From an uncultured bacterium (lineage in GTDB: Bacteria > Hydrothermota > UBA3072), in NCBI GenBank assembly GCA_964476585.1, contig CAYZBF010000002.1, forward strand, positions 2,354-66,353: DNA of 64,000 bases. The letters are read 5' to 3'. Of the stretch, positions 9,125 through 39,090 are shown piece after piece (positions within the stretch are counted from its first letter, which is position 1; the number at the start of each line of letters is the position of its first letter). Below the pieces are notes generated by a model. That model worked only from the letters and a program-made list of their open reading frames with translations. It did no database searches and had not been told where the DNA came from. The position numbers and the translations under genes are program-made.

Positions 9125-9646
9125 ATGGATGATGATATCTTAATTGAAAAGTGTAAGAAGGGTAATATGGAAGCATATGGAGAATTAGTAAAAAGATACA
9201 TGAAAAAGGCTTATAATGTAGCTCTTTATTTCACAAGAGATCCAAATGATGCATGGGATATATCTCAAGAAGGGTTTTTGAATGCATGGAAGGCAATAAG
9301 GCGATTCAATACAAAAAAGGCATTCTTCCCGTGGTTGTACACAATAATAAAGAACGAATCAATGAAGAAATTTAGAAGAGAAAAAAGAAAAAATAGAGGA
9401 AATCCTATTCCAATAACTGTTATTGAATCACCACATAAGAGATTGGAGAAAATTGAAAGTATAGAAAGGCTTAAAAGAGCTATCTCACGGCTTGATAGAA
9501 AAAAGCAGGAAATAATATATATGAGACATTTTGCAAAGATGAGTTATAATGAAATTGCAGAATCACTGAATATTGCAAAAGGCACTGTAATGTCCCGCCT
9601 ATATTATGCAAGAAAAGCGCTTCTAGAGGAATACAGGAATGGCTGA
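9125..9646 (+). CDS. ECF-subfamily RNA polymerase sigma-70 factor
   Basis: Region 2 (YGELVKRYMKKAYNVALYFTRDPNDAWDISQEGFLNAWK) and region 4 HTH (SYNEIAESLNIAKGTVMSRLYYARKAL). Confidence 0.85.
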   Translation: MDDDILIEKCKKGNMEAYGELVKRYMKKAYNVALYFTRDPNDAWDISQEGFLNAWKAIRRFNTKKAFFPWLYTIIKNESMKKFRREKRKNRGNPIPITVIESPHKRLEKIESIERLKRAISRLDRKKQEIIYMRHFAKMSYNEIAESLNIAKGTVMSRLYYARKALLEEYRNG

Positions 9647-10079
9647 TTTAGATACCCTTATAAATAAGTACCTTGATAAAGAATTATCCAAAAAGGAAAA
9701 AGAAGAACTTCAGAATCGTGTCGAAAAAGACAAAAAATTAAAGAAAGAATTAAAGGAATTGGACGAAATGAGGGAGGTGATTTCAATGCTAAAACCAAAG
9801 GATCCGGATAAAGAATGGGAGAGATACTGGAGCAATCTTTATAATCGCCTTGAAAGAGGTATTGGCTGGATAATAACATCAATCGGAGCAATACTCTTGC
9901 TAACATTCGCTGGATTTCAACTAGTGAAGGAACTCATAAAAGACCCGGAACTCGCCCTTTATGCAAAGATTGGTATAATAGCGTTGATGATAGGTTTTGT
10001 AATCCTTTTTGTCTCTGTAGTGCGGGAAAGAATCTTTATGGGAAAATCGGATAAATATTCAAAGGAGGTAAAACGATGA
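9639..10079 (+). CDS. putative membrane-anchored anti-sigma factor
   Basis: Overlaps the sigma gene stop (ATGGCTGA). It has a charged N-terminal coiled region followed by two TM helices, which is the usual arrangement for an ECF partner. Confidence 0.5.
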   Translation: MADLDTLINKYLDKELSKKEKEELQNRVEKDKKLKKELKELDEMREVISMLKPKDPDKEWERYWSNLYNRLERGIGWIITSIGAILLLTFAGFQLVKELIKDPELALYAKIGIIALMIGFVILFVSVVRERIFMGKSDKYSKEVKR

Positions 10080-23112: not shown

Positions 23113-24291
23113 ATGACTCTGGATTATGTTTGGAAGGATGTCTTCCGGGGAGGCCGTTTAGGTTTTTCCCCAAAAAAGATTTGGGTTGCAGTAAAAGGAC
23201 TTCTCTATGGAATAACAGGTTATGCAGTTCTTACGTACCTCTCATTAATGGTATCAGGATGGCAGATACAGAAAATATGGCAGGAATTCAGGTATATCCC
23301 GTTTCCATTCTTCCAAGGAAACCTTATATGGTATGGGTGGATAATTTGGGCAGTGGCAGGTCTTTGGGCATTATACCACTATTTCGTGACTATGACTGCT
23401 ATCTCTAAAATAACATATGAGCAATTAAAAGGAGATGAATTCTACGAATCTAAAGAAGCCTGGAGATTTGCTCGCAAGAACTGGAAAGGGACCTTCCTTT
23501 CTCCCATATATATGGCTTTGTTTATTGCTGCCCTCATACTAACAGGTTTGATTATTGGTCTGGCGGGAAGAATACCACATGTAGGACAAATACTTATAGG
23601 ATTATCTGCAATTCCAGTTTTTGCCGGTGCATTATTCGTAACATACCTAACAATCGTCCTCGGGATCATCCTCATCAGTGCTCCTGCCATTGTAGCTACC
23701 ACAGAGAGTGATACCTTTGACACTCTATTTGAGGGATTTTCACTGCTTAATGATCAAACCTGGAGATATATACTCTGGGAAGTTATTCTCCTGATTACAG
23801 TTTTCATAGGCGTGTTCATCTTCGCCTGGCTTTTCAAGTATGCATTTTCCTTAACACACCATATACTTGGAGTCTGGGCTGGCCCAAGGGGGTGGTGGAA
23901 TGTAATGTGGCATAATGGTCACTGGTATCTGTATATTCCTTGGCTGCCAATCTGGATTGCAAAATGGTTCCCCACTTTCTTCGCACCGATGCATTTCATA
24001 TCTGCAGGAGCTGAAAGCCTTTCCGCTTATCCAGGGGCTACTACGACGTTCGGTGGCTTCCTTATGGGACTTTCCTTTTATATGGTAACATTCGTAATCC
24101 TCGGGTATGGTATATCCACTCATGCAGCAGGACATACTATAATATACACAATTCTCGTCAAAATAAAAGACGAAAAGGACTTATTGAAAAAAGAAGAAAA
24201 ATTATTTGGAGGTGAACTCGAGGAGGAAGAAGAAGAGGTAGAAAAGAAAGAAAAAGGGGAAGAAAAGGAAGAGAAAGAGAAGAAAAAATAG
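23113..24291 (+). CDS. polytopic (about 8 TM) Trp-rich membrane protein with E/K-rich low-complexity C-terminal tail
   Basis: Multiple hydrophobic helices; tail GELEEEEEEVEKKEKGEEKEEKEKKK; RBS AGGAGG upstream. Confidence 0.5.
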   Translation: MTLDYVWKDVFRGGRLGFSPKKIWVAVKGLLYGITGYAVLTYLSLMVSGWQIQKIWQEFRYIPFPFFQGNLIWYGWIIWAVAGLWALYHYFVTMTAISKITYEQLKGDEFYESKEAWRFARKNWKGTFLSPIYMALFIAALILTGLIIGLAGRIPHVGQILIGLSAIPVFAGALFVTYLTIVLGIILISAPAIVATTESDTFDTLFEGFSLLNDQTWRYILWEVILLITVFIGVFIFAWLFKYAFSLTHHILGVWAGPRGWWNVMWHNGHWYLYIPWLPIWIAKWFPTFFAPMHFISAGAESLSAYPGATTTFGGFLMGLSFYMVTFVILGYGISTHAAGHTIIYTILVKIKDEKDLLKKEEKLFGGELEEEEEEVEKKEKGEEKEEKEKKK

Positions 24292-24329
24292 AAGAATAAA
24301 TAAAAATCAATCATATATAATTTACTGTA

Positions 24330-24360
24330 AAAACGCCCTTTCCAAGAAAGGGCGTTTTTA
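24330..24360 (+). terminator. rho-independent terminator
   Basis: aaaaACGCCCTTTccaagAAAGGGCGTttttta: a 9-bp GC-containing stem followed by a T-run. Confidence 0.75.
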
Positions 24361-24606
24361 CAATAATATACATAGTGTCAATAAAACCTTGACTATTGAA
24401 AAAACTTTTGTAGATTATTACAAATATTAAAAGGGGATAGTTTATTAATTGCCACAAAGGTTTTACTCCAGCGTAAGATAAAGAATGTGATTGAAAGATA
24501 AAATGAATAATTCGGATGATAGATACAGTGTTGCACTTTACATTCTGAAACTTTCGTTCTTCAACACTCTTGACAATATCTCTGTGGCGAAAGAAGGGAG
24601 GTTTTA

Positions 24607-26640
24607 ATGAAGAAGATTGTATTCTTTTTCTTAATAGTAATTCTTCTTACAGAGAGCTGCCAGAGAGCAAAAAAATTCACTTACGAAGGGAGAAAAGGCG
24701 GAACTTTGATTATTTCCCTCTTAAATGAGCCCACTTCCCTTAATCCCCTTTATCCAGCATTTTCAGGTCTTTCACCAGTTATAAAAGAGTTGTTTAGTCC
24801 TCTACATGACTACAGTCCTAATGGCAAAATAAGAACTTGTTTAGCTCAATCATGGGTATATTCAGAGGATCTAAAATCTATCACATATACAATTCGCAAA
24901 GACGCTAAGTGGCATGACGGAATGCCAATAACCTCGGCGGATATTGTCTTTACCGTAAAAAAAATAATGGATCCCAAAAGCAATTCACCACTTTCTCAAA
25001 GATTACGATATATAAAAGATGTAAAAGTAATTGGAGAGAGGGAGGTTCGGTTTGTATTTGATAGAGTATATGCAGATGAATTACTCCATACCAACATATT
25101 AATTATCCCAAAGCACAAAATTGAGAAGGGTATAGAGAATCTACAGATGAGTGACTTTAGTTTCAATCCAATAGGAAATGGTCCATACAAACTTAAAGCA
25201 TGGAAGCAGGGAGAGTGGATCGAGTTAATTGCAAGTAATGACTATTCCCGAGGGCGGCCTCCTCTTGACAGAATAGTTTTCTACTTCCCATCATCAATGG
25301 AAAAATTATTATACGAAATCAACTTGGGAAATATTGACATAGCGTATGATCTACCCCCTGCGCAGTATAATGGTATAAAAGGGTATAAAACCATAGTGTC
25401 TCCAGCTAGAGCTTATACTTATATCGGGTGGAATCTTGAACGTTTTAAAGACAAAAATCTGAGAAAAGCTTTCAGTATGGCCACCGACCGCAGGGGTATT
25501 ATATCCTCAATACTCTTAGGTTATGGTCTCCTATTAAATGGCCCAATAACTCCTGAACACTGGGCATTTAATCCTAACATAAAAGGTATCGATTATAATA
25601 AGCAAAAAGCAAAGGAATTAATAGAGGAACTTGGATATTCAAAGAGAAGCTGGCAACAATATTATCCAGGCTTAAGCATTGAAATACTGGTAGAAAGTGG
25701 GAACCCCATTCGAAGAAAAGTAGCAGATTATGTTATGTCTGATTTAAAATCAATAGGGGTTAATACAACCATCATAGAACTTAGAGGATCACAACTGATA
25801 GATCGCTTATTCAAACACAACTTTGACGCATACATCCTTGGATGGAGTGTTGAGAAAGACTTTAATCCTCTTCCAATCTGGGGTTCTAAAGGAGTGCATA
25901 ATTTTGTAGGTTATAAAAATAAGAAAGCCGACGCTTTAATGCAGGAAGCACTCTTTTCCCTTGACAGAGAAAAGGCTAAAAAAGCTTGGAATGAATTTCA
26001 GGAAATCATCGCAGGAGATCTTCCTTACACTTTCCTTTACGCACCTCAGAAGATAACACTGGTCAAGAAAACTGTAGGAGGCATAAAATCTGATGATAAA
26101 AGACCTGTAATTTCATTCCTGGACGAATTATGGCTTAAGGAACCTAAAGCCACTCCCGTTGAACTAGCGGCACTTGGAAAACACTATGAAAAAACTCAAG
26201 AGAGTAGAGTACGAAGCAGTATAGAGACAACTCCCCCACAACCGCAGACATCGACGGAAGAAATATTAGAAGCAGCAACATCCACTACTGTCTTGGAAGA
26301 AGAGAAACCCTCCGAAGCGGTAACCGAGGAAGAACCTAAGCCTGTCGAAGAAAAAAAGGGTCCTATAATACCACCTATCCTAAGTTATTACCCTCATGAA
26401 AGGGATTATCCTGATAATGCAAAAAAATTGGATATACGTGGGCAGATCTTTATAAAAGTCCACATTACGAAAGAAGGCACTGTTGAAAAAGCGGAAATTG
26501 CAAAAGGACTATTCCCCTCTTGTGACTCCGTAGCTTTGCTGGATGCTTATAAATGTAGATTTGATCCTGCAAAACAGGATGGAGAACCTGTAGAATTCAT
26601 ACTGACCCTTCCCTTCCGTTTCCCGCCTGGAGGGTGGTAG
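24607..26640 (+). CDS. family-5 solute-binding protein (OppA/DppA-like) fused to a Pro/Glu-rich linker and a TonB C-terminal domain
   Basis: Signal peptide with lipobox-like LTESC. SBP_bac_5-type core up to approx residue 520. Linker TTPPQPQTSTEE...EPKPVEEKKGP. C-terminal YPDNAKKLDIRGQIFIKVHITKEGTVEKAEIAKG...LLDAYKCRFDPAKQDGEPV matches the TonB_C signature. Confidence 0.7.
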   Translation: MKKIVFFFLIVILLTESCQRAKKFTYEGRKGGTLIISLLNEPTSLNPLYPAFSGLSPVIKELFSPLHDYSPNGKIRTCLAQSWVYSEDLKSITYTIRKDAKWHDGMPITSADIVFTVKKIMDPKSNSPLSQRLRYIKDVKVIGEREVRFVFDRVYADELLHTNILIIPKHKIEKGIENLQMSDFSFNPIGNGPYKLKAWKQGEWIELIASNDYSRGRPPLDRIVFYFPSSMEKLLYEINLGNIDIAYDLPPAQYNGIKGYKTIVSPARAYTYIGWNLERFKDKNLRKAFSMATDRRGIISSILLGYGLLLNGPITPEHWAFNPNIKGIDYNKQKAKELIEELGYSKRSWQQYYPGLSIEILVESGNPIRRKVADYVMSDLKSIGVNTTIIELRGSQLIDRLFKHNFDAYILGWSVEKDFNPLPIWGSKGVHNFVGYKNKKADALMQEALFSLDREKAKKAWNEFQEIIAGDLPYTFLYAPQKITLVKKTVGGIKSDDKRPVISFLDELWLKEPKATPVELAALGKHYEKTQESRVRSSIETTPPQPQTSTEEILEAATSTTVLEEEKPSEAVTEEEPKPVEEKKGPIIPPILSYYPHERDYPDNAKKLDIRGQIFIKVHITKEGTVEKAEIAKGLFPSCDSVALLDAYKCRFDPAKQDGEPVEFILTLPFRFPPGGW

Positions 26641-26646
26641 ACTTCA

Positions 26647-27210
26647 ATGAATGTAAGGTTTATTGAAAAACGAACTATGATGGATGCGGAAGAGATGCGC
26701 TGGTCTTTACGACGTATTTCACATCAGGTTATTGAAAATAACCCTCGACTTAAAAAAATCTGCATAATTGGGATCCGGAAAAGAGGTGACATATTAGCCA
26801 AAAGAATCGCAATAACATTAGGCGAGCTAACTTCATGGGATATCAAAGTAGGGGTACTTGATATCACTCTTTACCGGGACGACCTCACAACTTACGGACC
26901 CAAACCACTGATTGGGCCCACACACTTCCCCTGCCACATTGATGACTTGCATGTCTTACTTGTTGATGATGTAATACACACAGGGAGAACAATCAGGGCT
27001 GCCCTTGATGAAATTGTGGATTATGGTCGTCCTTCTACAGTAAAACTCGCAGTTATGGTAAACAGGAGCGGCAGAGAATTACCCATAATGCCTGATTACT
27101 CTGGAACGTCAGTAAATCTCGCATCGGGAGAGGAAGTTAAAGTTAATCTTTTGGAAACAGACGGAGAGGACTCAGTCAAGATAGTAGAGGTAAGCATTGA
27201 TAATGAATAG
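26647..27210 (+). CDS. pyrR: pyrimidine operon regulator / uracil phosphoribosyltransferase PyrR
   Basis: PRTase motif LLVDDVIHTGRTIRAALD; size and N-terminal region typical of PyrR. Confidence 0.85.
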   Translation: MNVRFIEKRTMMDAEEMRWSLRRISHQVIENNPRLKKICIIGIRKRGDILAKRIAITLGELTSWDIKVGVLDITLYRDDLTTYGPKPLIGPTHFPCHIDDLHVLLVDDVIHTGRTIRAALDEIVDYGRPSTVKLAVMVNRSGRELPIMPDYSGTSVNLASGEEVKVNLLETDGEDSVKIVEVSIDNE

Positions 27211-28138
27211 GAAAGACCTTTTAGGAATAGAAGATTTAAGTAGAGAAGAAATTGAGGAGATCCTAAGTGTAGCAGAATCCATGGAGGAGATTTTAGAGCG
27301 ACCAATAAAAATTGCCCCTACCCTTCGCGGAATTACTGTAGCAAATCTGTTCTTTGAACCTAGCACCCGAACTCTGAATTCTTTCGCGCTTGCAGAAAAA
27401 AGGCTTTCGGCGGATTATATCAATCTATCAGCGTCTTCTTCAAGCATTCTTAAGGGAGAAACTTTGCTTGACACGGCAAAGAATATACAGGCAATGGAGG
27501 TAGATATAATAGTTATAAGACATTCTATACCTGGGGCTCCTCACTTTCTTGCAGAAAGATTAGATGCTTCAGTGATAAATGCAGGAGATGGTGCACATGA
27601 ACATCCAACGCAGGCCTTACTTGATCTTAATACAATAAGAAAAAAAATGTCAACATTTGACAATTTAAAAGTTGCTATCATAGGTGACATCGAACACTCC
27701 CGAGTTGCCCGCTCACTCATTCTTGGGCTAAACAAAATGGGAGCTAAAGCTCATATATGCGGCCCACCCACTTTAATACCAAAATGGATGGACACATTTG
27801 ATGTCACGATTAACTACAATTTGGAAGAAGTTTTGCCTGACAAGGATATCATATATATATTAAGACTACAGATGGAAAGGCAACATGAAAGTTTTATTCC
27901 ATCAATTAGAGAATACATAAAATACTACAGTCTAACCTACGAAAGGTTGAAGAAATATGCATCTCCAGAAGTTTTAATAATGCATGCAGGTCCTATAAAT
28001 AGAGGAATTGAGATTGAATCTCGGGTGGCAGACTCAGAATATTCACTTATTTTAGATCAAGTAATTTCTGGTGTGGCAGTCAGAATGAGTATTCTCTACC
28101 TCTTAAGCAGGCAAAAGACCAATGAAGATAGCAATTAA
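27197..28138 (+). CDS. pyrB: aspartate carbamoyltransferase catalytic subunit
   Basis: FFEPSTRTLNSF (STRT) and HPTQALLD motifs. Confidence 0.9.
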   Translation: MIMNRKDLLGIEDLSREEIEEILSVAESMEEILERPIKIAPTLRGITVANLFFEPSTRTLNSFALAEKRLSADYINLSASSSSILKGETLLDTAKNIQAMEVDIIVIRHSIPGAPHFLAERLDASVINAGDGAHEHPTQALLDLNTIRKKMSTFDNLKVAIIGDIEHSRVARSLILGLNKMGAKAHICGPPTLIPKWMDTFDVTINYNLEEVLPDKDIIYILRLQMERQHESFIPSIREYIKYYSLTYERLKKYASPEVLIMHAGPINRGIEIESRVADSEYSLILDQVISGVAVRMSILYLLSRQKTNEDSN

Positions 28139-29414
28139 AGAAGCTCATCTTTTTGACCCCAAAAACAATATAGACGAGATTGGCAACATCTACATTGAGA
28201 ATGGCAGAGTAGTAGATGATTCTTCCAGCAAATCTTCAGATATTGAGATTGATGCCAGCAGCCTTCATCTCATACCAGGTCTTGTAGATATCCATTCTCA
28301 CTTTAGGGAACCAGGCAACGAGGATGCTGAGACAATAGAAAGCGGGTCCAGAGCTGCCGTCAAGGGAGGATTCACCTCAGTTTGTGTGATGCCAAACACA
28401 GAGCCCCCTATTGATAATGAGGGTGTGGCAAGATTCATAAAAGAAAAATCCATAAAGAGTAATAAATGTCGCATTTTTCCAATCGGAACTATCACCAAAG
28501 GTAGAGAAGGTAAAGAACTAGCTGAAATGGGACATCTCCATGAGGCAGGCTGTGTAGCTTTCAGTGATGATGGAAACTGTGTCATGGACCCTAACGTGCT
28601 CAGAAGAGCCCTAGAATATTCACTTCTTTTAGATGTCCCAATTATAGAGCACCCCGAAGATATGTCATTATCTAAGGATGGCCAGATAAATGAGGGTGTA
28701 ATATCAACCAGACTCGGATTTAAGGGAATACCCGATATATCCGAGGCCTCCATCGTAGCAAGAGACATACTTCTTGCTAAGTTTACAGGTGGAAAACTTC
28801 ACTTAGCCCATGTGTCGTCGAAGGAGTCAATAGACATTTTAGAATATGGTAAGAATAAGGGGATAAAAGTTACAGCCGAAGTAACACCACATCATCTCCT
28901 TCTAACCGAAGAAGCAGTTTTGAGTTTTGACACCAATACTAAGATGAAACCACCACTTAGAACCAAATCGGATAGAGAAGCCCTTCAGAAAGCATTAAAA
29001 AATGGAATTATAGATGTGGTGGCCACAGACCATGCACCTCATCCTGATTATGCGAAAGAGCTTGAATACTCCCTCGCTCCTTTTGGTGTAATTGGTCTGG
29101 AAACTGCCTTTAGCGTTCTATACACCAAATTAGTTCTCCCGGGCAATCTAAGTTTGAAACAATTAATTCTCAGTATGACTGATAAGCCTGCCAAGATACT
29201 CCGTCTCCCAGTGGGAGAAATAAAGAAGGGAGGGATTGCGGATTTCACCCTAATTGATCTTAATGCCAAGTGGGAGGTAAATCCTGATAATTTTGAATCT
29301 AAATCATCAAATTCTCCTTTCATTGGGTGGAAATTAAAGGGAGTTGTAGATTCAACCATAGTAAATGGTACCGTAACTTTTAGAGGGGGTGAATTCGTAC
29401 AGGAGGGAGAGTGA
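28122..29414 (+). CDS. pyrC: dihydroorotase (amidohydrolase superfamily)
   Basis: VDIHSHFREPG and ATDHAPH metal-binding motifs. Confidence 0.85.
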   Translation: MKIAIKEAHLFDPKNNIDEIGNIYIENGRVVDDSSSKSSDIEIDASSLHLIPGLVDIHSHFREPGNEDAETIESGSRAAVKGGFTSVCVMPNTEPPIDNEGVARFIKEKSIKSNKCRIFPIGTITKGREGKELAEMGHLHEAGCVAFSDDGNCVMDPNVLRRALEYSLLLDVPIIEHPEDMSLSKDGQINEGVISTRLGFKGIPDISEASIVARDILLAKFTGGKLHLAHVSSKESIDILEYGKNKGIKVTAEVTPHHLLLTEEAVLSFDTNTKMKPPLRTKSDREALQKALKNGIIDVVATDHAPHPDYAKELEYSLAPFGVIGLETAFSVLYTKLVLPGNLSLKQLILSMTDKPAKILRLPVGEIKKGGIADFTLIDLNAKWEVNPDNFESKSSNSPFIGWKLKGVVDSTIVNGTVTFRGGEFVQEGE

Positions 29415-31927
29415 CTAATTCATTTGATATATACGATCTTGAGGCAGCTTCCTTACTGGGAAGTAAATTCCTACTATCTTTAGAAGAAGGGGTTGGGAAA
29501 AGAGAAATCTATGAAAAATCCAAACAGACACTTTCTCGTTACTTTGAGTTGAGAGCTTTGGATACAAAAACTCTAGAATTTTTCAGCAGGCATAAAAGCA
29601 AATTTATCGTAGAACTGAATAATAAGGAAAGAGCATACCTGCGAGATATGTTCACACGACTATCAGAGGATAAGGTAAATAGAGAGGATATCCAATTCCT
29701 CAAAACCCTATCAGAAAATGTCATCGACAAGGAAATTCATTATTTCCCCTTACTTTTATCTCTAATACTGAAAACTTACCCCCGGGAATTAACTAAGGGA
29801 ACAAAAGACTCATTTAAGGTAGGTAAAAGGCTATCTAAGTTACTACAGGACATACTGAAGGGTAAAGAACTGGATAACCTCACCAAGGTGTTTCTGAAAG
29901 AACCTATTCCAATCGGCCTTCCACATATTAACACCTCACTAGAAGACTTACACAAATTTCTTACCCCCTATGGTTTTACTCCAGCTCTGTTCTCTAATAT
30001 CCATAGTATACTAATAAAAAACTTTACACAAAGAGAAAGTAGTGATATAGTTTCCCTGCTTAAAAATACAGATATATCGAGTATAGACGATCTGCGCAAC
30101 TTTCCTTTCCATGATTTCTTTAGGCCTGAGGATGAGACACTCGCAAGAATTTCAAGAATAGTTTCTGATAAAGCTTCTAAAGTGAAGCAGATATTAGTCC
30201 AAAAGGATATAGAACTTGACAGAAAGGATTTAAAGGTCCGTGAAGAAACTCACCAGCTCCTGCGGAGAAACGTAGAAAATTTACAATCTCTTATAGATGT
30301 AGCGAAGCGTGACCTTCAGGCAATGTTGAGTAAAACTCAGGAACAATTTACAGCATTGGAGAAAGCCCTGAAACTACATATAAGACATGTTCAAGCTCAT
30401 GAGAACGCTTCCATATCTTTAAAAAAAGCTATTGATGAGAATAAAGCACTACTCAATATAAGTATAGAGGATATAAAGTCATTATTTCCACCTCCTCCTC
30501 TCTGGGATATAGAATGTTTAGTTAAGGAATTCTGGCACGAATTACCTTATATCGAAATCATTGACCCTTCCTGCGAAAAACGAATAATTAAGCTTCTCAA
30601 GAGGGAAGAAAAGATAGCATCTGATAAAAAAGTATTTTTACAACTTTCGAATAGGGAGAAAAGCGGATTCATTCCTGATACAGAAAGAGTAATCTCAAAC
30701 TATTGTAATGTATTTAAAGAAATACTTGAGCCTTTACTCATCCGTGAGGTAATAAATCGTATGATTGAAATCTGGCCGCCCAATGTAGATTTCGAAAATC
30801 CTAAATCAAGAATTATTGCAACCAAAAAGATACACCTTGCAGGACTCAATCTACTACCAAGTGGACATTTTTATAGATTCGGGAGTAGAGGTAAAATAGA
30901 ACCCATTGTTGATAAAAAGCTTCTCAAAAAAAGAGAGCTTATATCAACCGCTCTAAGAAAGCGATTCTCAACCCTTGTTTCGGTGTTAGTCTATGACATT
31001 CGTGGATCAAGCTTTATGGCGCATCGCTTACGGAATGCTAAGAAGGAAAGAGCAATACGCAACAAGTTCCAATCCACCATGCTTGATGCTGCAATGAGAG
31101 GATCATCCTTTATATTAAAGGATACTGGCGATGGAGGAATCTTGTGGTTTGGAGGTAACTCTAAAAAGCACTACAGGAATATGTATAAGTGTCGTGAATG
31201 TAAATCGGGAGGTATCCTTCGTTCCTCCACTGCCTTTGAGGACGAATTCACATTATCCCCCCATCCAAAGAGTGCAGAGATGGCCATTAGAACCGCATTA
31301 AATCTAGTTCAAACTGCAGAGGAATTTGTAAGAGAAAATTATATGAACTACAGGGATTGGTTTGAAGAAATAACAGAGAAAGAAATTTTTCACGATGGAA
31401 TAACTTATGCCTTACTACCCCCAAAGTTCAAATCATTATTCAGACTTGGTATAGGGATAGCAAGCGGACAACCCATCAAGGATATTATATTCTCACCGAA
31501 CGCCTTTGGAGATCCGGATCTTACAGGCATCATCATTGACGAATCTGCTCTGTTTTCATCCGGAAAGAGCCCTGAACGTTCAGTAATATTAATAGACCAC
31601 TGCACACTAATAAATCTGCTTCTCAACTCAGATCAATATTTTTTAACTGAACTTCTAACCAGGGAAGATTCTGACGAGGCAGTTATCAACAAGCTCCTTA
31701 CTATTCTTAAAAGAGAAGAAACTGAACAGGAATTCATATTCGAGGATTTCACTATATCACCAGTGGGGCTCTATTATATCGATCACAAGGATAAAAATAA
31801 GAGGATAGAGTTCAAACTCTGGAAGAATTTAAAATTAGAATTCAATGATAGAGGAGAGTTATCTTGTAAGAGAGGCCGGGTGAAGATACTATATGAGGTC
31901 TCGGGTAAGGAAAAGAATGAAAAATAG
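29411..31927 (+). CDS. large protein with an N-terminal helical region (no homology recognised) and a C-terminal class-III nucleotidyl-cyclase-like (CHD-like) domain
   Basis: GTG start overlapping the pyrC stop (GTGA). VSVLVYDIRGSSF resembles the FxDIxGFT motif, and ILKDTGDGGILWFGG resembles K-x-GD metal-Asp motif 2. Confidence 0.45.
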   Translation: MTNSFDIYDLEAASLLGSKFLLSLEEGVGKREIYEKSKQTLSRYFELRALDTKTLEFFSRHKSKFIVELNNKERAYLRDMFTRLSEDKVNREDIQFLKTLSENVIDKEIHYFPLLLSLILKTYPRELTKGTKDSFKVGKRLSKLLQDILKGKELDNLTKVFLKEPIPIGLPHINTSLEDLHKFLTPYGFTPALFSNIHSILIKNFTQRESSDIVSLLKNTDISSIDDLRNFPFHDFFRPEDETLARISRIVSDKASKVKQILVQKDIELDRKDLKVREETHQLLRRNVENLQSLIDVAKRDLQAMLSKTQEQFTALEKALKLHIRHVQAHENASISLKKAIDENKALLNISIEDIKSLFPPPPLWDIECLVKEFWHELPYIEIIDPSCEKRIIKLLKREEKIASDKKVFLQLSNREKSGFIPDTERVISNYCNVFKEILEPLLIREVINRMIEIWPPNVDFENPKSRIIATKKIHLAGLNLLPSGHFYRFGSRGKIEPIVDKKLLKKRELISTALRKRFSTLVSVLVYDIRGSSFMAHRLRNAKKERAIRNKFQSTMLDAAMRGSSFILKDTGDGGILWFGGNSKKHYRNMYKCRECKSGGILRSSTAFEDEFTLSPHPKSAEMAIRTALNLVQTAEEFVRENYMNYRDWFEEITEKEIFHDGITYALLPPKFKSLFRLGIGIASGQPIKDIIFSPNAFGDPDLTGIIIDESALFSSGKSPERSVILIDHCTLINLLLNSDQYFLTELLTREDSDEAVINKLLTILKREETEQEFIFEDFTISPVGLYYIDHKDKNKRIEFKLWKNLKLEFNDRGELSCKRGRVKILYEVSGKEKNEK

Positions 31928-33464
31928 AATGTACGAATTCGAGGAAACAATAAAAGCAATTAACTCTAAAGAATTAAATATTGGCGAAGTTCTTAGCTTA
32001 ATAATGAAAATCATATCACGCTCGATTAATGCTAAAGCCTGGTCTCTTTTACTGCTGGATGAAAGAAGTAAAGAACTTGTCTTTGAAGAAGTTATTGGAG
32101 AAAAAAGTGAAGAATTAACCGGGAAAAGGATGCCTATGGATAAAGGGATAGTGGGCTGGGCAATAGAAAACGAGAAATCAGTAATTGTCTCGGACCCATA
32201 TAATGATGAGAGATTCTTTAAGGATATTGATAAAGACACAGGCTTTAAGACAGAATGTATTCTGGCAGTTCCTCTAATCAGTAAGGGACGTATTCTTGGA
32301 ATTATTGAGGCAATAAATAAAACAGATGGAACGAGTTTCAATGAGAATGATTTACAATTAGTAAATAATTATGCTGAACATGCAGCTATTGCTCTCGAAA
32401 ATGCAAATCTTGTACAGAGTTTACAAAGCAAAGTGAGATATCTAACACTCATTTCTGATATTAATAAAAATATAACCTCGATACTGGATCTTGAAATGCT
32501 TCTTAAGAAGAGTGCACAATTAATCCAGAAGACATTTGATTACTATTATACCGCTATAGGACTCTTTGAAGATGACAGGATTACACTCAAGGGATTCTCT
32601 TCCTCTGAAAACATTAAACCTGTCCGCACTATTATAAAAAAAGGTGAAGGACTTGTAGGGAAGGTTATAAAGAATAAGGAAAGAATTATAGTACCAGATA
32701 CTGAGAAAGATTCTAATTACTTTGAAGGGATTAAAGGGATAAAAAGCGAAATGGTAATCCCGATTAAAAGAGAGAGCGGTTTCTTAGGAATTATTGATAT
32801 TGGTTCACCGGAGAAATATGTATTCTCAATAGAGGAAGCAAACATCATAAGTGAAGTATCATACCAATTAGCAACTGCTGTGGAGAACGCAAAACTTTAC
32901 CAGGAAATCAGGCTTGCATCAATCACAGATGATATCACAGGTTTATATAATTCAAGGTATTGCAATGAAAAACTCCCTGATATTGTTAACAGATGGCACA
33001 CTGCTGAAAAAGTAGGTTCTTTAATATTCATGGATATTGATCATTTTAAAAATGTTAACGATTCTTACAATCATCTGATTGGAAGCAAATTATTGCATTT
33101 AGTGGGAAGAAGGATAAAGGATATCTTAGATGAAGCTAAAATAGGAATCAGATATGGTGGTGATGAATATATAATTGTTATGGAGGGTCTGGGATTAGAA
33201 GAAGCAATTGCTTTTACTAAAGAAATAAAAAATTTAATTTCGTCAAAGCCATATATAATTAGGGATAATTCTAATAAAATTGAATGTTGGGTTAAAGCCA
33301 GCTTTGGGATAGCGAGTTTCCCAGACGTAACAACTAATTCTCAGGAATTACTCCGTCTTGCCGACCTTGCGATGTACTATGTAAAATCCAATGGAAGGGA
33401 TAATATAGCCTATATGGACAGAAAAGCTGATATTAAGCTACTTAATGAGCAAACAAATTCTTGA
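31893..33464 (+). CDS. GAF-GAF-GGDEF domain protein (GGDEY variant), putative diguanylate cyclase
   Basis: Two GAF-like regions. GGDEF domain with DIDHFKNVND and RYGGDEYIIV. The likely true start is at 31917 or 31929 (MKNRMYEF / MYEF). Confidence 0.8.
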   Translation: MRSRVRKRMKNRMYEFEETIKAINSKELNIGEVLSLIMKIISRSINAKAWSLLLLDERSKELVFEEVIGEKSEELTGKRMPMDKGIVGWAIENEKSVIVSDPYNDERFFKDIDKDTGFKTECILAVPLISKGRILGIIEAINKTDGTSFNENDLQLVNNYAEHAAIALENANLVQSLQSKVRYLTLISDINKNITSILDLEMLLKKSAQLIQKTFDYYYTAIGLFEDDRITLKGFSSSENIKPVRTIIKKGEGLVGKVIKNKERIIVPDTEKDSNYFEGIKGIKSEMVIPIKRESGFLGIIDIGSPEKYVFSIEEANIISEVSYQLATAVENAKLYQEIRLASITDDITGLYNSRYCNEKLPDIVNRWHTAEKVGSLIFMDIDHFKNVNDSYNHLIGSKLLHLVGRRIKDILDEAKIGIRYGGDEYIIVMEGLGLEEAIAFTKEIKNLISSKPYIIRDNSNKIECWVKASFGIASFPDVTTNSQELLRLADLAMYYVKSNGRDNIAYMDRKADIKLLNEQTNS

Positions 33465-35013
33465 AATCTATCCTGACTTAAAATATCCTGTAACACTGGC
33501 AAAGATAGACAATCAATATGCCTCACTGGAAGAAAAAGTCCCCCTCGGTGGAAAGATTGAAATTCTGGATGTCAACAATACAGAGGGTAGAAGAACCTAT
33601 GAAAGAACCCTTGTGTTTCTCCTTGATTATATAGCAAAGAGAAAAGGAGTAACTATTAAGATAGAACATTCTTATGGAGACGCTTTATATTGCAGGTTTT
33701 TGAAGGGTTCATTAAATCTAAATACTACAAAAAAAGAAATAATCGATTTGATCAAGGCAAATAAAAAAATAGAACGCTTAATGTTACCAAAATTAGAGGC
33801 TACACATTTCTTAGAGGAAAGGGAAGACGACCTGAACATTTTAAAACACCTCTCTCGAACTTATATTCCAGTATATAAACTTGACGATTTCGCAGCATAT
33901 TATGCAGGTCCATTATTGCCCAAGACCGGATTCTTATCAATATTTGACCTGATAAAGATTGCGGATGGATTCCTGGTCATCCTTCCAACACAAGAGGATC
34001 CCTCCACTTTAGGCAAAATTGAAGGAGGGGAGCAACTATTTAAAACATATAAAGAAGCAAGGAGGGAAGCGGAGATCCTAAAAGTATGGGATGTAGCACG
34101 TTTGAATGAATATGTCGTCTCTGGTGCAATATCGGAAATAGTAAAGACAGCCGAAGCAATCCACACCGAGAAAATAACGGAGATATGTAAGGAAATATTG
34201 AGTGGTAGAGAAAGAACGAAGATGATACTTATATCGGGTCCTTCATCTTCTGGAAAAACTACATTTTCAAAAAGGTTAGGAGTACATCTCCGCATACACG
34301 GCATTACTCCTCTTTATATATCTCTTGATAATTATTTTCTAGAGAGAAAGAAAACACCATTATACATAGATGGCACTCCCTTTTTTGACACCTTTGAAGC
34401 ACTAGATGTAAAGCTGTTTGGAGAACATATTTCACAGATTCTTTCAGGAAAGGAAGTAAAAGAATTAACCTTCAATTTTAAAAAGGGAAGGAAGGAATGG
34501 TTTGGCAAGACATACAAACTAACGCCTAAAACAATCCCTGTGATTGAAGGAATACATGCTTTTAATCCGGGACTTTTAAAAGATATGGAAATAAGTACTT
34601 TTCTTATCTATGTCAGTGCCCTTACTCAATTAAATATTAATAGGGTGAACCGCATACCTACTCGTGATGTTCGACTTCTCCGTAGAATTTTCAGAGATAC
34701 ACGTTTCAGGGGCCATTCAGCCGATCAGACCCTAAAGCAATGGGCTTCTGTAAAAGAAGGGGAAGAGAAATTTATTTTTCCATATCAGGAAAGAGCAGAT
34801 ATTATGTTTAACTCCTCTCTAGTATATGAACTTGCAGTTTTAAAAAGCTTCCTTGAAACGCCCCTCCGTTGCGTCGACACCACTTCCCCTTATTACTGCG
34901 AAGCACTGCGATTATTGAATTTCCTGGATCATTTTCTCGGTATAAGAGAGGATGAAATTCCCCCAACTTCAATCCTGCGCGAATTTATCGGTGGAAGTAC
35001 CTTTTACTATTGA
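33445..35013 (+). CDS. uridine kinase/phosphoribulokinase-family P-loop nucleoside kinase with a ~230-aa N-terminal extension
   Basis: ISGPSSSGKTTFSKRL Walker A; Udk-like core over residues ~250-480. Overlaps the upstream gene by 20 nt. Confidence 0.65.
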   Translation: MSKQILEIYPDLKYPVTLAKIDNQYASLEEKVPLGGKIEILDVNNTEGRRTYERTLVFLLDYIAKRKGVTIKIEHSYGDALYCRFLKGSLNLNTTKKEIIDLIKANKKIERLMLPKLEATHFLEEREDDLNILKHLSRTYIPVYKLDDFAAYYAGPLLPKTGFLSIFDLIKIADGFLVILPTQEDPSTLGKIEGGEQLFKTYKEARREAEILKVWDVARLNEYVVSGAISEIVKTAEAIHTEKITEICKEILSGRERTKMILISGPSSSGKTTFSKRLGVHLRIHGITPLYISLDNYFLERKKTPLYIDGTPFFDTFEALDVKLFGEHISQILSGKEVKELTFNFKKGRKEWFGKTYKLTPKTIPVIEGIHAFNPGLLKDMEISTFLIYVSALTQLNINRVNRIPTRDVRLLRRIFRDTRFRGHSADQTLKQWASVKEGEEKFIFPYQERADIMFNSSLVYELAVLKSFLETPLRCVDTTSPYYCEALRLLNFLDHFLGIREDEIPPTSILREFIGGSTFYY

Positions 35014-35131: not shown

Positions 35132-36085
35132 TTGAGTCTTGACTTATCCTCTTATATTCATATAATCTATTGCATGATGAGGATTTTAAGAATTTCACTT
35201 AGCTTTTTCATACCATTTTTCTTATTCTCACAAGAGCTGGGTTGGAAGAAGGGAGACATTGCTATTGTTCAGTGGGAAAAAACGCCTTTCCAGGACGGAA
35301 TAAGAGACAGCATAATAGATGTGCTACCTGTAGAGATTGACGAATATCAATTAAAAGGAAAGGTGGAAAAAATATATGGGATCTTTGGCAATATATCTAA
35401 AAAGAATTACCGTCTGGTTGTAATGATTGGAGCCCAGATTGTCACACCAATCCTGCAATATCTACCTGAAACTCCGATAATCATCATAGGTGCATCAATA
35501 GATCTTGATAGGATCCATAAAAAATTCCATAACATTACAGGTATATATTCCTTTACCTCACCAACGGTCCAGCTTTACAATATATTGCAACTGGTAAAGG
35601 ACGTTAAGAAGATAGGGGTAATATACAATCCCCTACACTCAAGTGTAGAAGTAGGAATGCTTGAGAGGGCAATCACTGATACTACCATTAGTCTTATTAA
35701 GAATGGGGTTTCCAATTCAAATGAGATAGCAACAGCATTACATTTTATTAAGGATATTGATCTCTTATGGATACCGACTGATCCTATATATAGAGATAGG
35801 AAAGCAATCAAGAATATGATGGACTATTCCTTAAAAAACAATATCCCGGTATTTTCACCATCAATTGAGTTTGTTCGGAAGGGAGCACTTGCTTCCCAGT
35901 TACCTTCAGACGTTTCACTTGAAATCTTATCCATCATTTCATCTTTAGAAAAAGGCAAAAACATACAAGAAGTACATCCACGATTTCCTTCAGAGAGTCT
36001 TATTCTAAACAAAAAGACGGCTGAGCTTTTAGGTATAGAGATACCTGAGAGACTCCTATTAACTGCTGAAGAAGTGTATGAGTAA
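35132..36085 (+). CDS. orphan periplasmic binding protein of the ABC_sub_bind (PF04392-like) family
   Basis: Signal peptide, then KKIGVIYNP...IDLLWIPTDP...NIPVFSPSIEFVRKGALAS, as is typical of this sensor-associated SBP family. No permease or ATPase gene is adjacent. Confidence 0.6.
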   Translation: MSLDLSSYIHIIYCMMRILRISLSFFIPFFLFSQELGWKKGDIAIVQWEKTPFQDGIRDSIIDVLPVEIDEYQLKGKVEKIYGIFGNISKKNYRLVVMIGAQIVTPILQYLPETPIIIIGASIDLDRIHKKFHNITGIYSFTSPTVQLYNILQLVKDVKKIGVIYNPLHSSVEVGMLERAITDTTISLIKNGVSNSNEIATALHFIKDIDLLWIPTDPIYRDRKAIKNMMDYSLKNNIPVFSPSIEFVRKGALASQLPSDVSLEILSIISSLEKGKNIQEVHPRFPSESLILNKKTAELLGIEIPERLLLTAEEVYE

Positions 36086-36241: not shown

Positions 36242-37897
36242 ATGATAAAATCAAACACTTTGAAAGGCAGAATATCCATCCTGATGGTAAGCAGCTTAAT
36301 AGGCATAACTGTCCTAATTGGAGTTATATCATTTTTCTCCACACGTTCCAACTTCAGAACGCTCTTGGAAGAAAGAGCAGCTGCTATAATTCAGGCAATA
36401 GGCCCTACACTGGAACTTGGTCTATACGCAGAAAATCTTGCACTCTTAGAACCTCCAATTAAAGGCCTTTTTGGTCAAGAAGATATTATATATAGCTCTG
36501 CATATAACCTTTCGGGAATTAATCTAATTCAAAAGAGTGAAATCGATTTTGATCTTGAATTAAGTAAAGAACTTTTAGAAAGAGTTAAACAGGGAGAATT
36601 TATTAGCCAATTAAGGAAAGTAAAGGGGCAATCATTCCTTGATTGCCTAGGTCCCATCTATCCTCTGGAGATTACAGGCAAAAAACAACCAATTGGAATA
36701 TTAAGAATTGGAATATCTCTAAAGGCCATATCCTCCGCTATGCAAAGATTGACCTTAATTCTGGGCATCTCACTTATTGCTGCATTAGTATTAGCAAGTT
36801 TAGCAACAACCCGATCCCTTATCATACTCTTCAGGCCTCTTTATGATTTAAAGGAAAGATTGAAACAAATATCTGAAGGTACCGTAGACCTCAAGGTCCG
36901 ATTATCTGAAAATACATTGACTACTGAGACCGATGAACTTGCATCCTCGTTTAATAGATTTGTTCAAACCCTACAAAAAAACAAAGAATTTACCCAAGAT
37001 GTCTCAGAACGAATGTCAGCTCAAGCAGAAGAACTATCAGCCTCAGCAGAGCAAATGAGTGCCTCATATGAAGAGATTTCCTCCACTATGCAACAGGTAG
37101 CTCTATCTTCTGACAAACAAGCAGCAGAATCACAAACTGCCTCCGAGATGGCACGGAAAGCGCTCCATGTCGTTCATCAATCATTTGATAGTGCACAGGA
37201 GACACTAAAATCCTCAGATACTATCTCTCTATTATCACAGAAAGGAGGGGAATCAGCAAAAGAAGTGCGATTAGCCATGGATAACGTAACCAACATTATA
37301 TATGAATTAGAGGATGTCACTCAACAAATCCAGAAACGCTCGGAAGAGATATCTGGCATTACAGAAACAGTGGGCGAGATTAGTAAGAGAACCAACGTGC
37401 TATCTCTTAATGCCACAATTGAAGCTTCAAAGGCAGGAGAAACTGGAAAGGGCTTTGCTGTGGTTGCAGAAGAAATCAGAAAACTGGCAACCCAATCTTC
37501 CGAATCAGCTAGAAAGATCTCTGAGATATTGGGTGAGGTCACCGGCGTGATAGATTCGTTAATTATGAAAACAGAGGAAACAATTGAAGAAGTGAAAAAA
37601 GGGAAGGAGATCTCATTAAAGTCAGCAGATTTCTTAAAGAATATTGCAGGCGAGATAAGCCATGTAACAAAGAGAATCAAGGAAATAACAATAATCAACA
37701 AACAAGGAGAAGAAGAGGTCAACACTATAACCGAAGCTATTGAAAATATTGCAGCTATCGCAGAAGAGAATGCTGCTTCATCAGAAGAAATTTCAGCGGC
37801 AATCCAGCAATTGTCAGCTTCTATTCAAGAATTATCAGCAACCTCCCAAGAGACTGCTCAGATAGCTGAAAAACTTTATAAATTGACAAGCAACTAA
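36242..37897 (+). CDS. methyl-accepting chemotaxis protein (2 TM, periplasmic sensor, HAMP, MCP signalling domain)
   Basis: Highly conserved MCP signalling core ATIEASKAGETGKGFAVVAEEIRKLA. Confidence 0.85.
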   Translation: MIKSNTLKGRISILMVSSLIGITVLIGVISFFSTRSNFRTLLEERAAAIIQAIGPTLELGLYAENLALLEPPIKGLFGQEDIIYSSAYNLSGINLIQKSEIDFDLELSKELLERVKQGEFISQLRKVKGQSFLDCLGPIYPLEITGKKQPIGILRIGISLKAISSAMQRLTLILGISLIAALVLASLATTRSLIILFRPLYDLKERLKQISEGTVDLKVRLSENTLTTETDELASSFNRFVQTLQKNKEFTQDVSERMSAQAEELSASAEQMSASYEEISSTMQQVALSSDKQAAESQTASEMARKALHVVHQSFDSAQETLKSSDTISLLSQKGGESAKEVRLAMDNVTNIIYELEDVTQQIQKRSEEISGITETVGEISKRTNVLSLNATIEASKAGETGKGFAVVAEEIRKLATQSSESARKISEILGEVTGVIDSLIMKTEETIEEVKKGKEISLKSADFLKNIAGEISHVTKRIKEITIINKQGEEEVNTITEAIENIAAIAEENAASSEEISAAIQQLSASIQELSATSQETAQIAEKLYKLTSN

Positions 37898-39090
37898 TGA
37901 ATAACTTAATTGGTCTAGTATATGTTTTACTTTCAAGCCTCACTCTCTACCTAATATCCTTACCATTACTAAAACGGCTAAAAGGGGGAAGGCGAGAAAT
38001 AATAAAATATTCACTATTCCCACTCTTTGTCATTTTGTTCAGTTACCTATTCAGTAATTTAGGATTATTCAACCCTGCCTATAGAGGAGTCCTTGCCTTT
38101 TTCTCTTCATATTTATTCATCTTTCTTTTTCTGCTCTCGATAATGATCAACATTCGGGGAGGAAAAATTACCTGGTTAAATATCCTTGTTATTGGATCTC
38201 TCATCCTCATCATTGCTCTCCTGCATAAACTCGGGGTAATTACACCAGTATTTCTTTTCCTTAAAAAGCCAATAGTAAGTATTGGAAGCACTCAAATAAG
38301 TTTAATAGATATATTTCTCGCAACTATAATATTCTACTTATCGATTAGATACTCCCAGAATGTAAGAGAGTTGCTGGAGAAAAGATTAAGGAGATTTCCG
38401 GCTATGGACTTAGGAAGAATCCATATCTTTTCTATGATAGTTAGATATGGAATTATTGTTGTTGGAATATTCATAGCATTATCCATTGTCGGTATAGACC
38501 TTACCACCCTTAAGGTTTTAATAGGTGCGCTCGGAGTTGGTATAGGATTTGGATTACAGCACATGGTAAACAACCTGCTAAGCGGTTTTATCATCCTCTC
38601 CGATAAATCCATAGTGGTGAATGATTTGATAGAGGTGGATGGGTTACTCGGATGGGTTGAGGCTGTAGGGCTCCGAGCAACTATAATAAGAACCTTCAAC
38701 AATGTAGAAGTAATAGTTCCAAATGCAGAGCTTGTTTATAATAAAGTAACCAATTACACCCATTCAGATAATCTAATTAGAATTGATATTCCTGTTGGTG
38801 TTTCCTACACTTCTGACCCAAACAGAGTAAAAGAAGTGCTGATTGAAGCACTTTCTCCATTAAAAGAAAGAGTGGAAAAATCTTCCATTGACGTTTATTT
38901 CAATGATTTTGGAGAGAGTTCACTTGACTTCATCGCGTTTATATGGACTGACCAACCTCTTAAGAAAAAGAAGATTGAGAGTGATGCCCGATTTGCTATA
39001 TGGAAGGCATTAAAGGAAAACAACGTTGAAATCCCATTTCCTCAACAGGATATTCATATCAGAGATAGTAAATCAGAAATTAATTCATAA
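37897..39090 (+). CDS. MscS-family mechanosensitive channel
   Basis: Multiple N-terminal TM helices; conserved MscS beta-domain region GLRATIIRTFNNVEVIVPNAEL. 1-nt TAATG overlap with the MCP gene. Confidence 0.85.
   Translation: MNNLIGLVYVLLSSLTLYLISLPLLKRLKGGRREIIKYSLFPLFVILFSYLFSNLGLFNPAYRGVLAFFSSYLFIFLFLLSIMINIRGGKITWLNILVIGSLILIIALLHKLGVITPVFLFLKKPIVSIGSTQISLIDIFLATIIFYLSIRYSQNVRELLEKRLRRFPAMDLGRIHIFSMIVRYGIIVVGIFIALSIVGIDLTTLKVLIGALGVGIGFGLQHMVNNLLSGFIILSDKSIVVNDLIEVDGLLGWVEAVGLRATIIRTFNNVEVIVPNAELVYNKVTNYTHSDNLIRIDIPVGVSYTSDPNRVKEVLIEALSPLKERVEKSSIDVYFNDFGESSLDFIAFIWTDQPLKKKKIESDARFAIWKALKENNVEIPFPQQDIHIRDSKSEINS

Follow-up and report, generated by a model that had tools for sequence, protein, structure and literature searches.

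A family 5 solute-binding protein fused to a TonB C-terminal domain, conserved throughout the WOR-3 phylum

How do substrates released by the TonB-dependent transporters (TBDTs) of the outer membrane reach periplasmic binding proteins, and does TonB organise this hand-off? This question, still open in the field, is raised by one gene in a 64,000-nucleotide stretch of DNA from an uncultured bacterium (assembly GCA_964476585.1, contig CAYZBF010000002.1), the whole of which is called the window here. The gene had been read earlier, in what is termed below the original prediction, as a fusion of a family 5 solute-binding protein (SBP) with a TonB C-terminal domain (TonB_C). The open reading frame (ORF) exists exactly as it was described, at 24607–26640 on the plus strand, with a product of 677 amino acids (aa), and both of its domains are recognised by profile searches. 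In Pfam, SBP_bac_5 (PF00496) is matched at residues 75–416 (E=9e-73, 245.9 bits for a cut-off of 32.4) and TonB_C (PF03544) at residues 599–672 (E=1.6e-12, 48.1 bits for a cut-off of 24.6). The NCBIfam model tonB_Cterm (TIGR01352) is also passed by the fusion protein, with 30.9 bits for a cut-off of 27.1. These scores are far above chance. Both domains are bona fide and well conserved, and they stand behind a lipoprotein signal, as had been claimed. The parts of the protein are as follows (pLDDT, predicted local distance difference test).

24607..24660, plus strand: signal peptide (residues 1–17) and lipid-attachment Cys18 (codon 24658–24660), from the conservation of Cys18 and a weak LPAM_1 match at the N-terminus in the Pfam search
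24694..26151, plus strand: family 5 (cluster C, Opp/Dpp/Nik type) solute-binding domain, residues ~30–515, from Pfam, PDB profile search, Foldseek and pLDDT
26164..26400, plus strand: disordered acidic Glu/Pro/Thr/Lys-rich linker, residues 520–598 (79 aa), from composition and pLDDT
26245..26286, plus strand: conserved linker motif [VI][VP]x[PA]-E-x-[LI]-L-[EQ]-A-x-A, from column frequencies, with a predicted helix
26401..26622, plus strand: TonB C-terminal domain, residues 599–672, from Pfam, TIGR01352, alignment with Escherichia coli TonB and AlphaFold2 secondary structure

Such a fusion could have been an artefact, a sequencing or assembly frameshift joining two separate genes, as the original prediction itself had pointed out. 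This explanation now has practically no chance of being right. A search of 5.8 billion proteins returned 500 matches, and all of the 120 listed contain both PF00496 and PF03544 in a single ORF, with a length of about 675–720 aa and an identity down to 31%; more than 115 full-length homologues share the fusion architecture. Among 185,579 species-representative genomes scanned, 289 relatives were detected; the best 79 loci were taken up, and about 70 of these hold the complete fusion in independent assemblies. The length and motif of the linker are conserved across the homologues as well. What could be said in favour of the artefact comes from a low-coverage (3.8x) WOR-3 metagenome-assembled genome (MAG), the only one with a split gene among the loci examined, in which the SBP part and the linker-plus-TonB_C part are two overlapping ORFs (L078, 8409–10398). 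This split is most likely a frameshift error in that MAG assembly. Since one reading frame recurs in more than 100 independent assemblies, the frameshift was rejected and the earlier caveat is not borne out.

The fusion-bearing genomes are labelled WOR-3, Stahlbacteria, 'TA06' or Hydrothermus, a few of the bins being probably mislabelled, and the gene occurs in each of the five complete WOR-3 chromosomes matched (CP070664, CP070686, CP070795, CP070802 and CP070834). The matches from Acidobacteriota and Pirellulaceae end at about residue 494 and are plain SBPs. These comparisons indicate that the fusion is genuine and ancient within the WOR-3 phylum. The domain scan and the database search for this architecture, both proposed with the original prediction, have thus come out in its support. 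Its description as unusual holds in one sense only: no paper describing the architecture was found, but the protein belongs to a phylum-wide WOR-3 family and is not a singleton. In the full-text literature, no paper was found that names the two Pfam domains together or describes an SBP–TonB_C fusion. TonB and peptide transport go unmentioned in two recent papers on WOR-3 genomes, and the supplementary tables of two WOR-3 papers contain no KEGG Orthology (KO) or transporter entries from which co-occurrence at the genome level could be read. The databases contain hundreds of the fusion sequences, under names such as 'TonB family protein' or 'peptide/nickel transport system substrate-binding protein'. 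The novelty thus lies in recognising and interpreting the architecture; the sequences themselves were there before.

How is this protein built? Its N-terminus (MKKIVFFFLIVILLTESC) has a hydrophobic core of just ~11 residues. Cys18 is invariant across 82 aligned homologues, and many members have a classical LSGC or LAGC lipobox, which together identify the family as lipoproteins and bear out the signal peptide and lipobox-like Cys proposed earlier. Transmembrane (TM) hydrophobicity is reached by no 19-residue window anywhere in the fusion protein, the maximal Kyte–Doolittle mean past residue 25 being 1.41. The announced Pro/Glu/Thr-rich spacer was found at residues 520–598, with 16 Glu, 10 Pro, 9 Thr and a net charge of -8. 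Within the family, the linker measures 72–121 aa (median 95) and is rich in Glu, Pro, Thr, Ala, Val and Lys; it is disordered, with a Pro content of 14%, and without the (EP)n/(KP)n repeats known from enterobacterial TonB. Its mean conservation (0.31–0.46) is much lower than that of TonB_C (0.57–0.62), which is similar to that of the SBP part. The AlphaFold2 model, obtained from an 82-sequence alignment, has a mean pLDDT of 87.5, with values above 90 for the SBP domain and 77–91 for TonB_C. The linker is modelled as disordered, with pLDDT below 50 at residues 537–542 and 562–586, and is interrupted by a single short helix at residues 550–560 (pLDDT about 61–72). This isolated helix coincides with the conserved linker motif, in which E551 reaches 91% and L554 97%. 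Its PE-x-LL-E-A sequence loosely resembles the TBDT TonB box PEIVVTA. Reading it as a pseudo-TonB box would be speculation; AlphaFold2 gives a helix at this place, not an added beta strand.

The TonB_C segment aligns with the C-terminal domain of E. coli TonB (2gsk_B, 1u07) through the YP..A...G.V.V.F motif, and Y601, P602, A605, G612, G624, V626, A643, A647, P654, P661 and F672 are invariant or nearly so. In the model, helices at residues 603–607 and 637–649 and strands at 612–620, 625–633 and 655–672 provide the expected strand–strand–helix–strand order, including the final long beta strand. In E. coli TonB, it is this final strand that pairs with the TonB box. The structural modelling of the linker and of TonB_C that had been called for is therefore in line with the original prediction.

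Is the fusion then a TonB? Its layout echoes the TonB design, with a membrane anchor, a Pro/Glu/Lys-rich spacer (72–121 aa) and a C-terminal domain. In TonB of E. coli (TIGR01352/PF03544), the YP motif and the beta–beta–alpha–beta fold likewise follow a Pro/Glu/Lys-rich spacer, to which the repeat-free linker of the fusion may correspond. In contrast with TonB, however, the fusion lacks both an N-terminal TM anchor and a segment for coupling to ExbB/ExbD; it starts with just a cleavable lipoprotein signal, and a binding domain of 490 aa is inserted between anchor and spacer. Without a TM helix it cannot couple to ExbB/ExbD and cannot transduce the proton-motive force in the way TonB does; it is not an energy transducer. 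Judged from its sequence, the fusion carries a TonB_C but is not a TonB.

The next point to consider is the kind of SBP involved. The best solved relative in a PDB profile search is the Bacillus subtilis peptide binder AppA (1xoc, E=8.7e-113), after which NikZ, CtaP and CcNikZ-II are the closest solved relatives. Foldseek matches the SBP domain to AppA 1xoc with E=6e-46; AppA, NikZ and CtaP all lie within E values of 1e-41 to 1e-46, and the target-normalised TM-score for NikZ (4oet) is 0.87. The bilobed periplasmic-binding-protein fold of the modelled SBP domain is thus superposable on solved members of the family, and the same fold and sequence family are shared by AppA, OppA, DppA, NikA, NikZ and CtaP. 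In NCBIfam, the SBP part scores best with Opp4A, then with Opp5A_nikA and NikA; none of the equivalogs Opp4A, Opp5A_nikA, nickel_nikA, DppA and OppA reaches its cut-off, the best score being 197.6 bits for Opp4A, against 650 required. The Gram-positive members have an N-terminal lipoprotein anchor, as does the fusion, which differs by an extra ~160 aa (linker and TonB_C). From these relationships, the ligand would by default be a short peptide, and a metal-chelate is possible.

The genomic context was surveyed in 71 fusion loci (927 ORFs, +/-10 kb). By sequence and by fold the fusion is a member of SBP family 5, yet its genes do not lie in the operons typical of such proteins. In the loci of plain SBPs from other phyla (Acidobacteriota, Pirellulaceae), OppB/C/D/F-like genes are found directly downstream in all six cases examined. 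In contrast, an OppB/C-like gene is found in 0/71 fusion loci, and none in the 64-kb window; the fusion has therefore left the classical operon context. Its neighbours are instead clade-specific, as listed here.

Clade A (the window's clade; Stahlbacteria-like), 62–74% identity to the window protein: a ~400-aa membrane protein upstream (3/4 relatives' loci and the window), then the fusion, then pyrR-pyrB-pyrC
Clade B, 48–52% identity to the window protein: a 200-aa TonB-like gene upstream in 10/10 loci; NikR and LarC/LarB/LarE downstream
Clade C, 43–44% identity to the window protein: pyrR-pyrB-pyrC downstream in 2/3 loci
Clade D, 36–38% identity to the window protein: a BtuB-like 654-aa TBDT head-to-head in 4/7 loci
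Clade E (41 loci), 31–35% identity: glycosyltransferase, UDP-glucose dehydrogenase, epimerase and MscS upstream; PglZ response regulator and kinase downstream

Two of these contexts involve Ton genes. The TBDT that divergently adjoins the fusion in clade D has a canonical TonB box (LPEIVVTAKR, as at locus L008), and in clade B the adjoining gene encodes a TonB-like protein with a near-identical C-terminal domain. The tethering to TonB-box receptors put forward in the original prediction gains indirect support from clades B and D; none of these features is found in the window. The joining of the two domains in one conserved gene suggests, though it does not prove, a periplasmic nutrient capture tied to outer-membrane TonB-dependent import.

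The small TonB-like protein of clade B (200 aa) consists of a clear TM helix, which distinguishes it from the fusion, a Pro-rich stretch and a TonB_C. Its C-terminal domain is 56–70% identical to that of the adjoining fusion, a BLAST comparison giving 74% over 95 aa at locus L003. The C-terminal domain of the clade-B fusion is only 28–36% identical to those of the other fusion clades, whereas clades A and B share 60% identity in their SBP parts. Such discordant identities of the two halves imply that the C-terminal domain was exchanged with that of the neighbouring TonB-like protein at the base of clade B. Since the C-terminal domains of clade-B fusion orthologues are 85% identical, this was a single old event and not an ongoing conversion. 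The C-terminal domains of the fusion and of the TonB-like protein are presumably interchangeable, and their exchange argues that the fusion's domain does what a TonB C-terminal domain does, with the same partner as TonB.

A conserved promoter motif of the extracytoplasmic function (ECF)/sigma-E type, GGGAACTTT-N~15-ATCTAAAT, immediately precedes the small TonB-like gene of clade B; it can be recognised at the following sites, and also, by eye, in L013, L017 and L031. It is absent from the window, and no conserved NikR-type palindrome was found upstream of the clade-B genes.

L003, 4513–4539
L012, 3770–3796
L014, 324–350
L015, 9633–9659
L016, 299–325
L020, 2229–2256
L026, 6614–6640

What could such a protein do? 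The reading preferred here, tentatively and at somewhat less than an even chance, is that of a lipid-anchored binding protein recruited to TonB-box transporters or to TonB for capture and hand-off. An exported, N-terminally lipid-anchored binding protein of the Opp/App/Nik family would be extended by a flexible acidic linker and a TonB-type docking domain. Through its TonB_C it would dock to TBDTs, at their periplasmic TonB box, or to TonB itself, so that the Venus-flytrap domain would sit at the transporter exit and bind what has been imported, either a short peptide or a ligand resembling a metal chelate. This substrate would then be handed to an inner-membrane importer encoded elsewhere. 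If the anchor lies in the inner membrane, a fully extended linker of 79–121 aa could span the periplasm; with an outer-membrane anchor, the protein would be placed beneath the transporters. In this model, we infer the TonB-box binding, the hand-off, the ligand class and the membrane of anchorage. Signs of a diderm host are found in the window, which encodes a lipid A acyltransferase, OmpA, Wzi and a cargo protein of the type IX secretion system (T9SS), and a cultured WOR-3 member is a true diderm with lipopolysaccharide (LPS) genes (PMC12285271).

A precedent for contacts between binding proteins and TonB is provided by FhuD and BtuF of E. coli. The TonB–FhuD and TonB–BtuF associations are non-covalent and were proposed by Carter et al. 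2006 and James et al. 2009, as cited in PMC3813593. The concept is the same, a binding protein being brought to the TonB/TBDT site for direct substrate hand-over. In the fusion, in contrast, the association predicted from sequence would be covalent, within one polypeptide, and its SBP belongs to cluster C, whereas FhuD and BtuF belong to cluster A. TonB_C is also appended to other non-TonB proteins of diderms of the Fibrobacteres–Chlorobi–Bacteroidetes (FCB) type, as it is in the fusion. Bacteroides has functionally uncharacterised TonB_C proteins with Peptidase_M56, CarbopepD_reg_2, DUF4488 or tandem TonB_C (PMC10350073), and the MxcH-type TBDT (NF038079) has an N-terminal TonB_C. None of the partners listed for these proteins is an SBP, however, and the fusion is lipid-anchored, not TM-anchored.

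Several points weigh against a docking and hand-off function. Neither a TBDT, a second TonB_C or TonB, nor ExbBD or an Opp permease can be recognised in the 64-kb window; clade E, the largest with 41 loci, likewise has no Ton-related neighbour. The contexts are specific to clades (pyr operon, NikR/LarBCE, polysaccharide genes with MscS). Once docked, the TonB_C of the fusion and the genuine TonB would be rivals for a single box. ATP-binding cassette (ABC) transporters are reportedly few in sy37, the cultured WOR-3 strain (PMC12285271). Both the TonB-box docking and the inner-membrane partner are predictions. Moreover, TonB_C is a promiscuous domain, with 8,646 representative proteins matched, so that its presence alone is no proof of TonB-box docking. 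Many of these proteins have 2–7 tandem copies or BlaR1-like N-termini. In the search made with TonB_C only, across 1.84 billion representatives, the top ranks are tandem TonB_C and BlaR1-like proteins and are uninformative on other SBP fusions; among the representative-library matches P0121–P0269, many have 2–7 tandem TonB_C or a TonB_C behind a BlaR1-like multi-pass N-terminus.

Other functions have thus to be weighed. It is conceivable, though unlikely, that the fusion is a ligand-dependent competitor or regulator, with a TonB_C that transmits no energy while it fills TonB boxes or pairs with TonB. It would then gate import by the loading state of its binding domain, as a brake or a sensor rather than a hand-off device. 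Such a role would fit a TonB-equivalent C-terminal domain in a protein with no TM or ExbBD-coupling segment, in which any occupancy of a TonB box would therefore be non-productive. It would also fit the lack of linkage to ABC permease genes and the position of the clade-B fusion, between a TonB-like gene with an ECF-type promoter and the regulator NikR; the conserved linker helix of the model could be a regulatory element. However, signalling partners find no support, and a full SBP fold that is highly conserved across the phylum is more simply explained by substrate capture. A constitutive lipid-anchored competitor, expressed with pyr genes in the window's clade, would also seem wasteful. A new, ABC-independent trans-envelope relay is a long shot: the protein would dock on substrate-loaded TBDTs and pass the cargo to a non-ABC inner-membrane carrier, possibly the CTL/CysZ-like neighbour described below, with the linker helix as a possible intramolecular switch. 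WOR-3 bacteria would then have hard-wired a step that is a debated transient contact in E. coli.

The remaining alternatives concern the ligand and the docking partner. LarC, LarB and LarE take part in nickel-pincer cofactor synthesis, and in 11 clade-B loci NikR is directly downstream of the fusion with LarC/LarB/LarE adjoining. NikA, Opp5A_nikA, CntA and NikZ occur among the NCBIfam and PDB matches, and the TBDT adjoining the fusion in clade D is BtuB-like. These observations would agree with a binder of nickel or metal chelates in a TonB-dependent nickel uptake, the SBP being NikA/NikZ-like throughout the family, an explanation that nevertheless looks improbable. Nickel binders of the NikZ type are distinguished by a pair of His residues, the 'HH-prong' (GHHG), towards the C-terminal end of their SBP domain (bioRxiv 10.1101/2022.10.03.510666). 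Unlike NikZ, none of the 115 full-length fusion members has HH in this region, and H170 is their only near-invariant His. A NikZ-type nickel site was thus rejected, and by these residues the fusion is not a NikZ-type nickel binder. The best matches are to a peptide binder, AppA, and to Opp4A, every equivalog score is far under its cut-off, and the NikR link is restricted to one clade and absent in the window. Quite improbable, too, is an envelope-tethering or structural lipoprotein, whose TonB_C would bind peptidoglycan or a periplasmic protein (a TolB/Pal-like box) and whose SBP-like domain would bind a cell-wall peptide in the manner of MppA, or act as a chaperone, in envelope organisation or murein-peptide recycling. 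TonB_C and TolA domain III are related folds, and MppA, which binds a cell-wall peptide, is among the structural matches. A tethering role would suit a core gene, present in every complete WOR-3 chromosome matched, with neighbours unrelated to transport in most clades, among them PBP1A and OmpA close by in the window and, in clade E, polysaccharide genes and MscS. In addition, TonB_2 (PF13103) is a further match of one homologue, and one C-terminal domain shows a weak similarity to the AgmX/PglI tail. On the other hand, the Pfam match to TonB_C is clearly better than that to TolA-type domains, MppA is a weaker structural match than AppA or NikZ, and both the exchange with the adjoining TonB-like protein and the TBDT adjacency point to the Ton system.

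A natural covalent fusion maintained across a phylum is 'Rosetta-stone' evidence that both functions are exerted at the same place, and it offers a simple soluble two-domain protein for an in vitro test of the hand-off idea. If the function turns out to be regulation or tethering, it would still be a new use of the TonB_C module. In either case, the family is a conserved envelope component of WOR-3, a phylum with a cultured member only recently and with an essentially uncharted transport physiology.

How is the fusion gene expressed in the window? Its immediate surroundings comprise the following elements.

23113..24291, plus strand: polytopic membrane protein of 392 aa, WOR-3-wide, with no Pfam or NCBIfam family
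24322..24366, no strand assigned: perfect, G+C-rich terminator hairpin with a 20-pair stem and A-run/T-run flanks, from the sequence and a hairpin search
24597..24602, plus strand: ribosome-binding site GGGAGG, read from the sequence, 4 nt before the ATG at 24607
26647–27210, plus strand: pyrR, from the ORF and Pfam matches of the orthologous genes in L001 and L002
27197–28138, plus strand: pyrB, on the same basis
28122–29414, plus strand: pyrC, on the same basis

The hairpin lies in the 315-nt gap upstream of the fusion gene and looks like a bidirectional intrinsic terminator. By its sequence it is the intrinsic terminator closing the upstream membrane-protein gene, and the fusion gene therefore opens a new transcription unit. 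Its stop codon is separated from pyrR by 6 nt, with no terminator between them, so that the fusion and pyrR-pyrB-pyrC would be co-transcribed. In six relatives from clades A and C (43–74% identity), the corresponding gaps are 6, 6, 12, 6, -4 and -1 nt. In the window's clade the fusion is translationally coupled to pyrR-pyrB-pyrC. The gene is thus indeed the first of the pyr operon, as had been noted, in an arrangement conserved in clades A and C. In an Rfam search, no PyrR RNA element or riboswitch was found upstream of or inside the operon, only sub-threshold chance matches on the terminator hairpin (BTnc231, mir-722).

The predicted fold of the 392-aa membrane protein resembles the choline-transporter-like PNS1/CTL1 and CysZ. 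At 9 loci a member of this family adjoins the fusion, and three arrangements occur among them. It is unlinked in the complete genome CP070664, at 2 Mb from the fusion; it was thus rejected as an obligate partner and retained as a lead only. Four minus-strand ORFs at 43.4–47.3 kb, guessed by size to be oppBCDF, are actually an esterase, YchF, a CN-hydrolase and an aminotransferase. A TBDT fragment had also been proposed at 1–468, and could not be confirmed: no Pfam match was obtained at E<=0.1, nor any similarity to the WOR-3 TBDT of L008. On the plus strand, this segment encodes the last 155 aa of a protein whose gene begins before the first position of the window and whose sequence ends in ...YYFGVSFEI.

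Further genes of the window may be mentioned, beginning with those that follow pyrC.

29411–31927, plus strand: 838-aa protein with no Pfam family, right after pyrC and conserved in L001 and L002
31893–33464: GAF-GAF-GGDEF cyclase
33445–35013: 522-aa PRK/uridine-kinase-like protein
35132–36085: ABC_sub_bind protein
36242–37897: chemoreceptor
37897–39090: MscS channel
39877–43350, plus strand: gingipain-like C25 peptidase (1157 aa) that carries a propeptide and, for type IX secretion, a C-terminal sorting domain

The C25 peptidase, to judge from its domains, indicates a T9SS-exported proteolysis, which could supply peptide substrates. Towards the start of the window, at 9125–10079 overall, the gene of an ECF sigma factor (9125–9646, plus strand) overlaps that of a 146-aa protein with a weak DUF2207_C match, possibly its anti-sigma partner. 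Finally, a 385-aa protein with no Pfam match is encoded at 6002–7156 on the minus strand, downstream of and overlapping the gene of an M16 peptidase (7143–8378), and may be its divergent inactive partner subunit.

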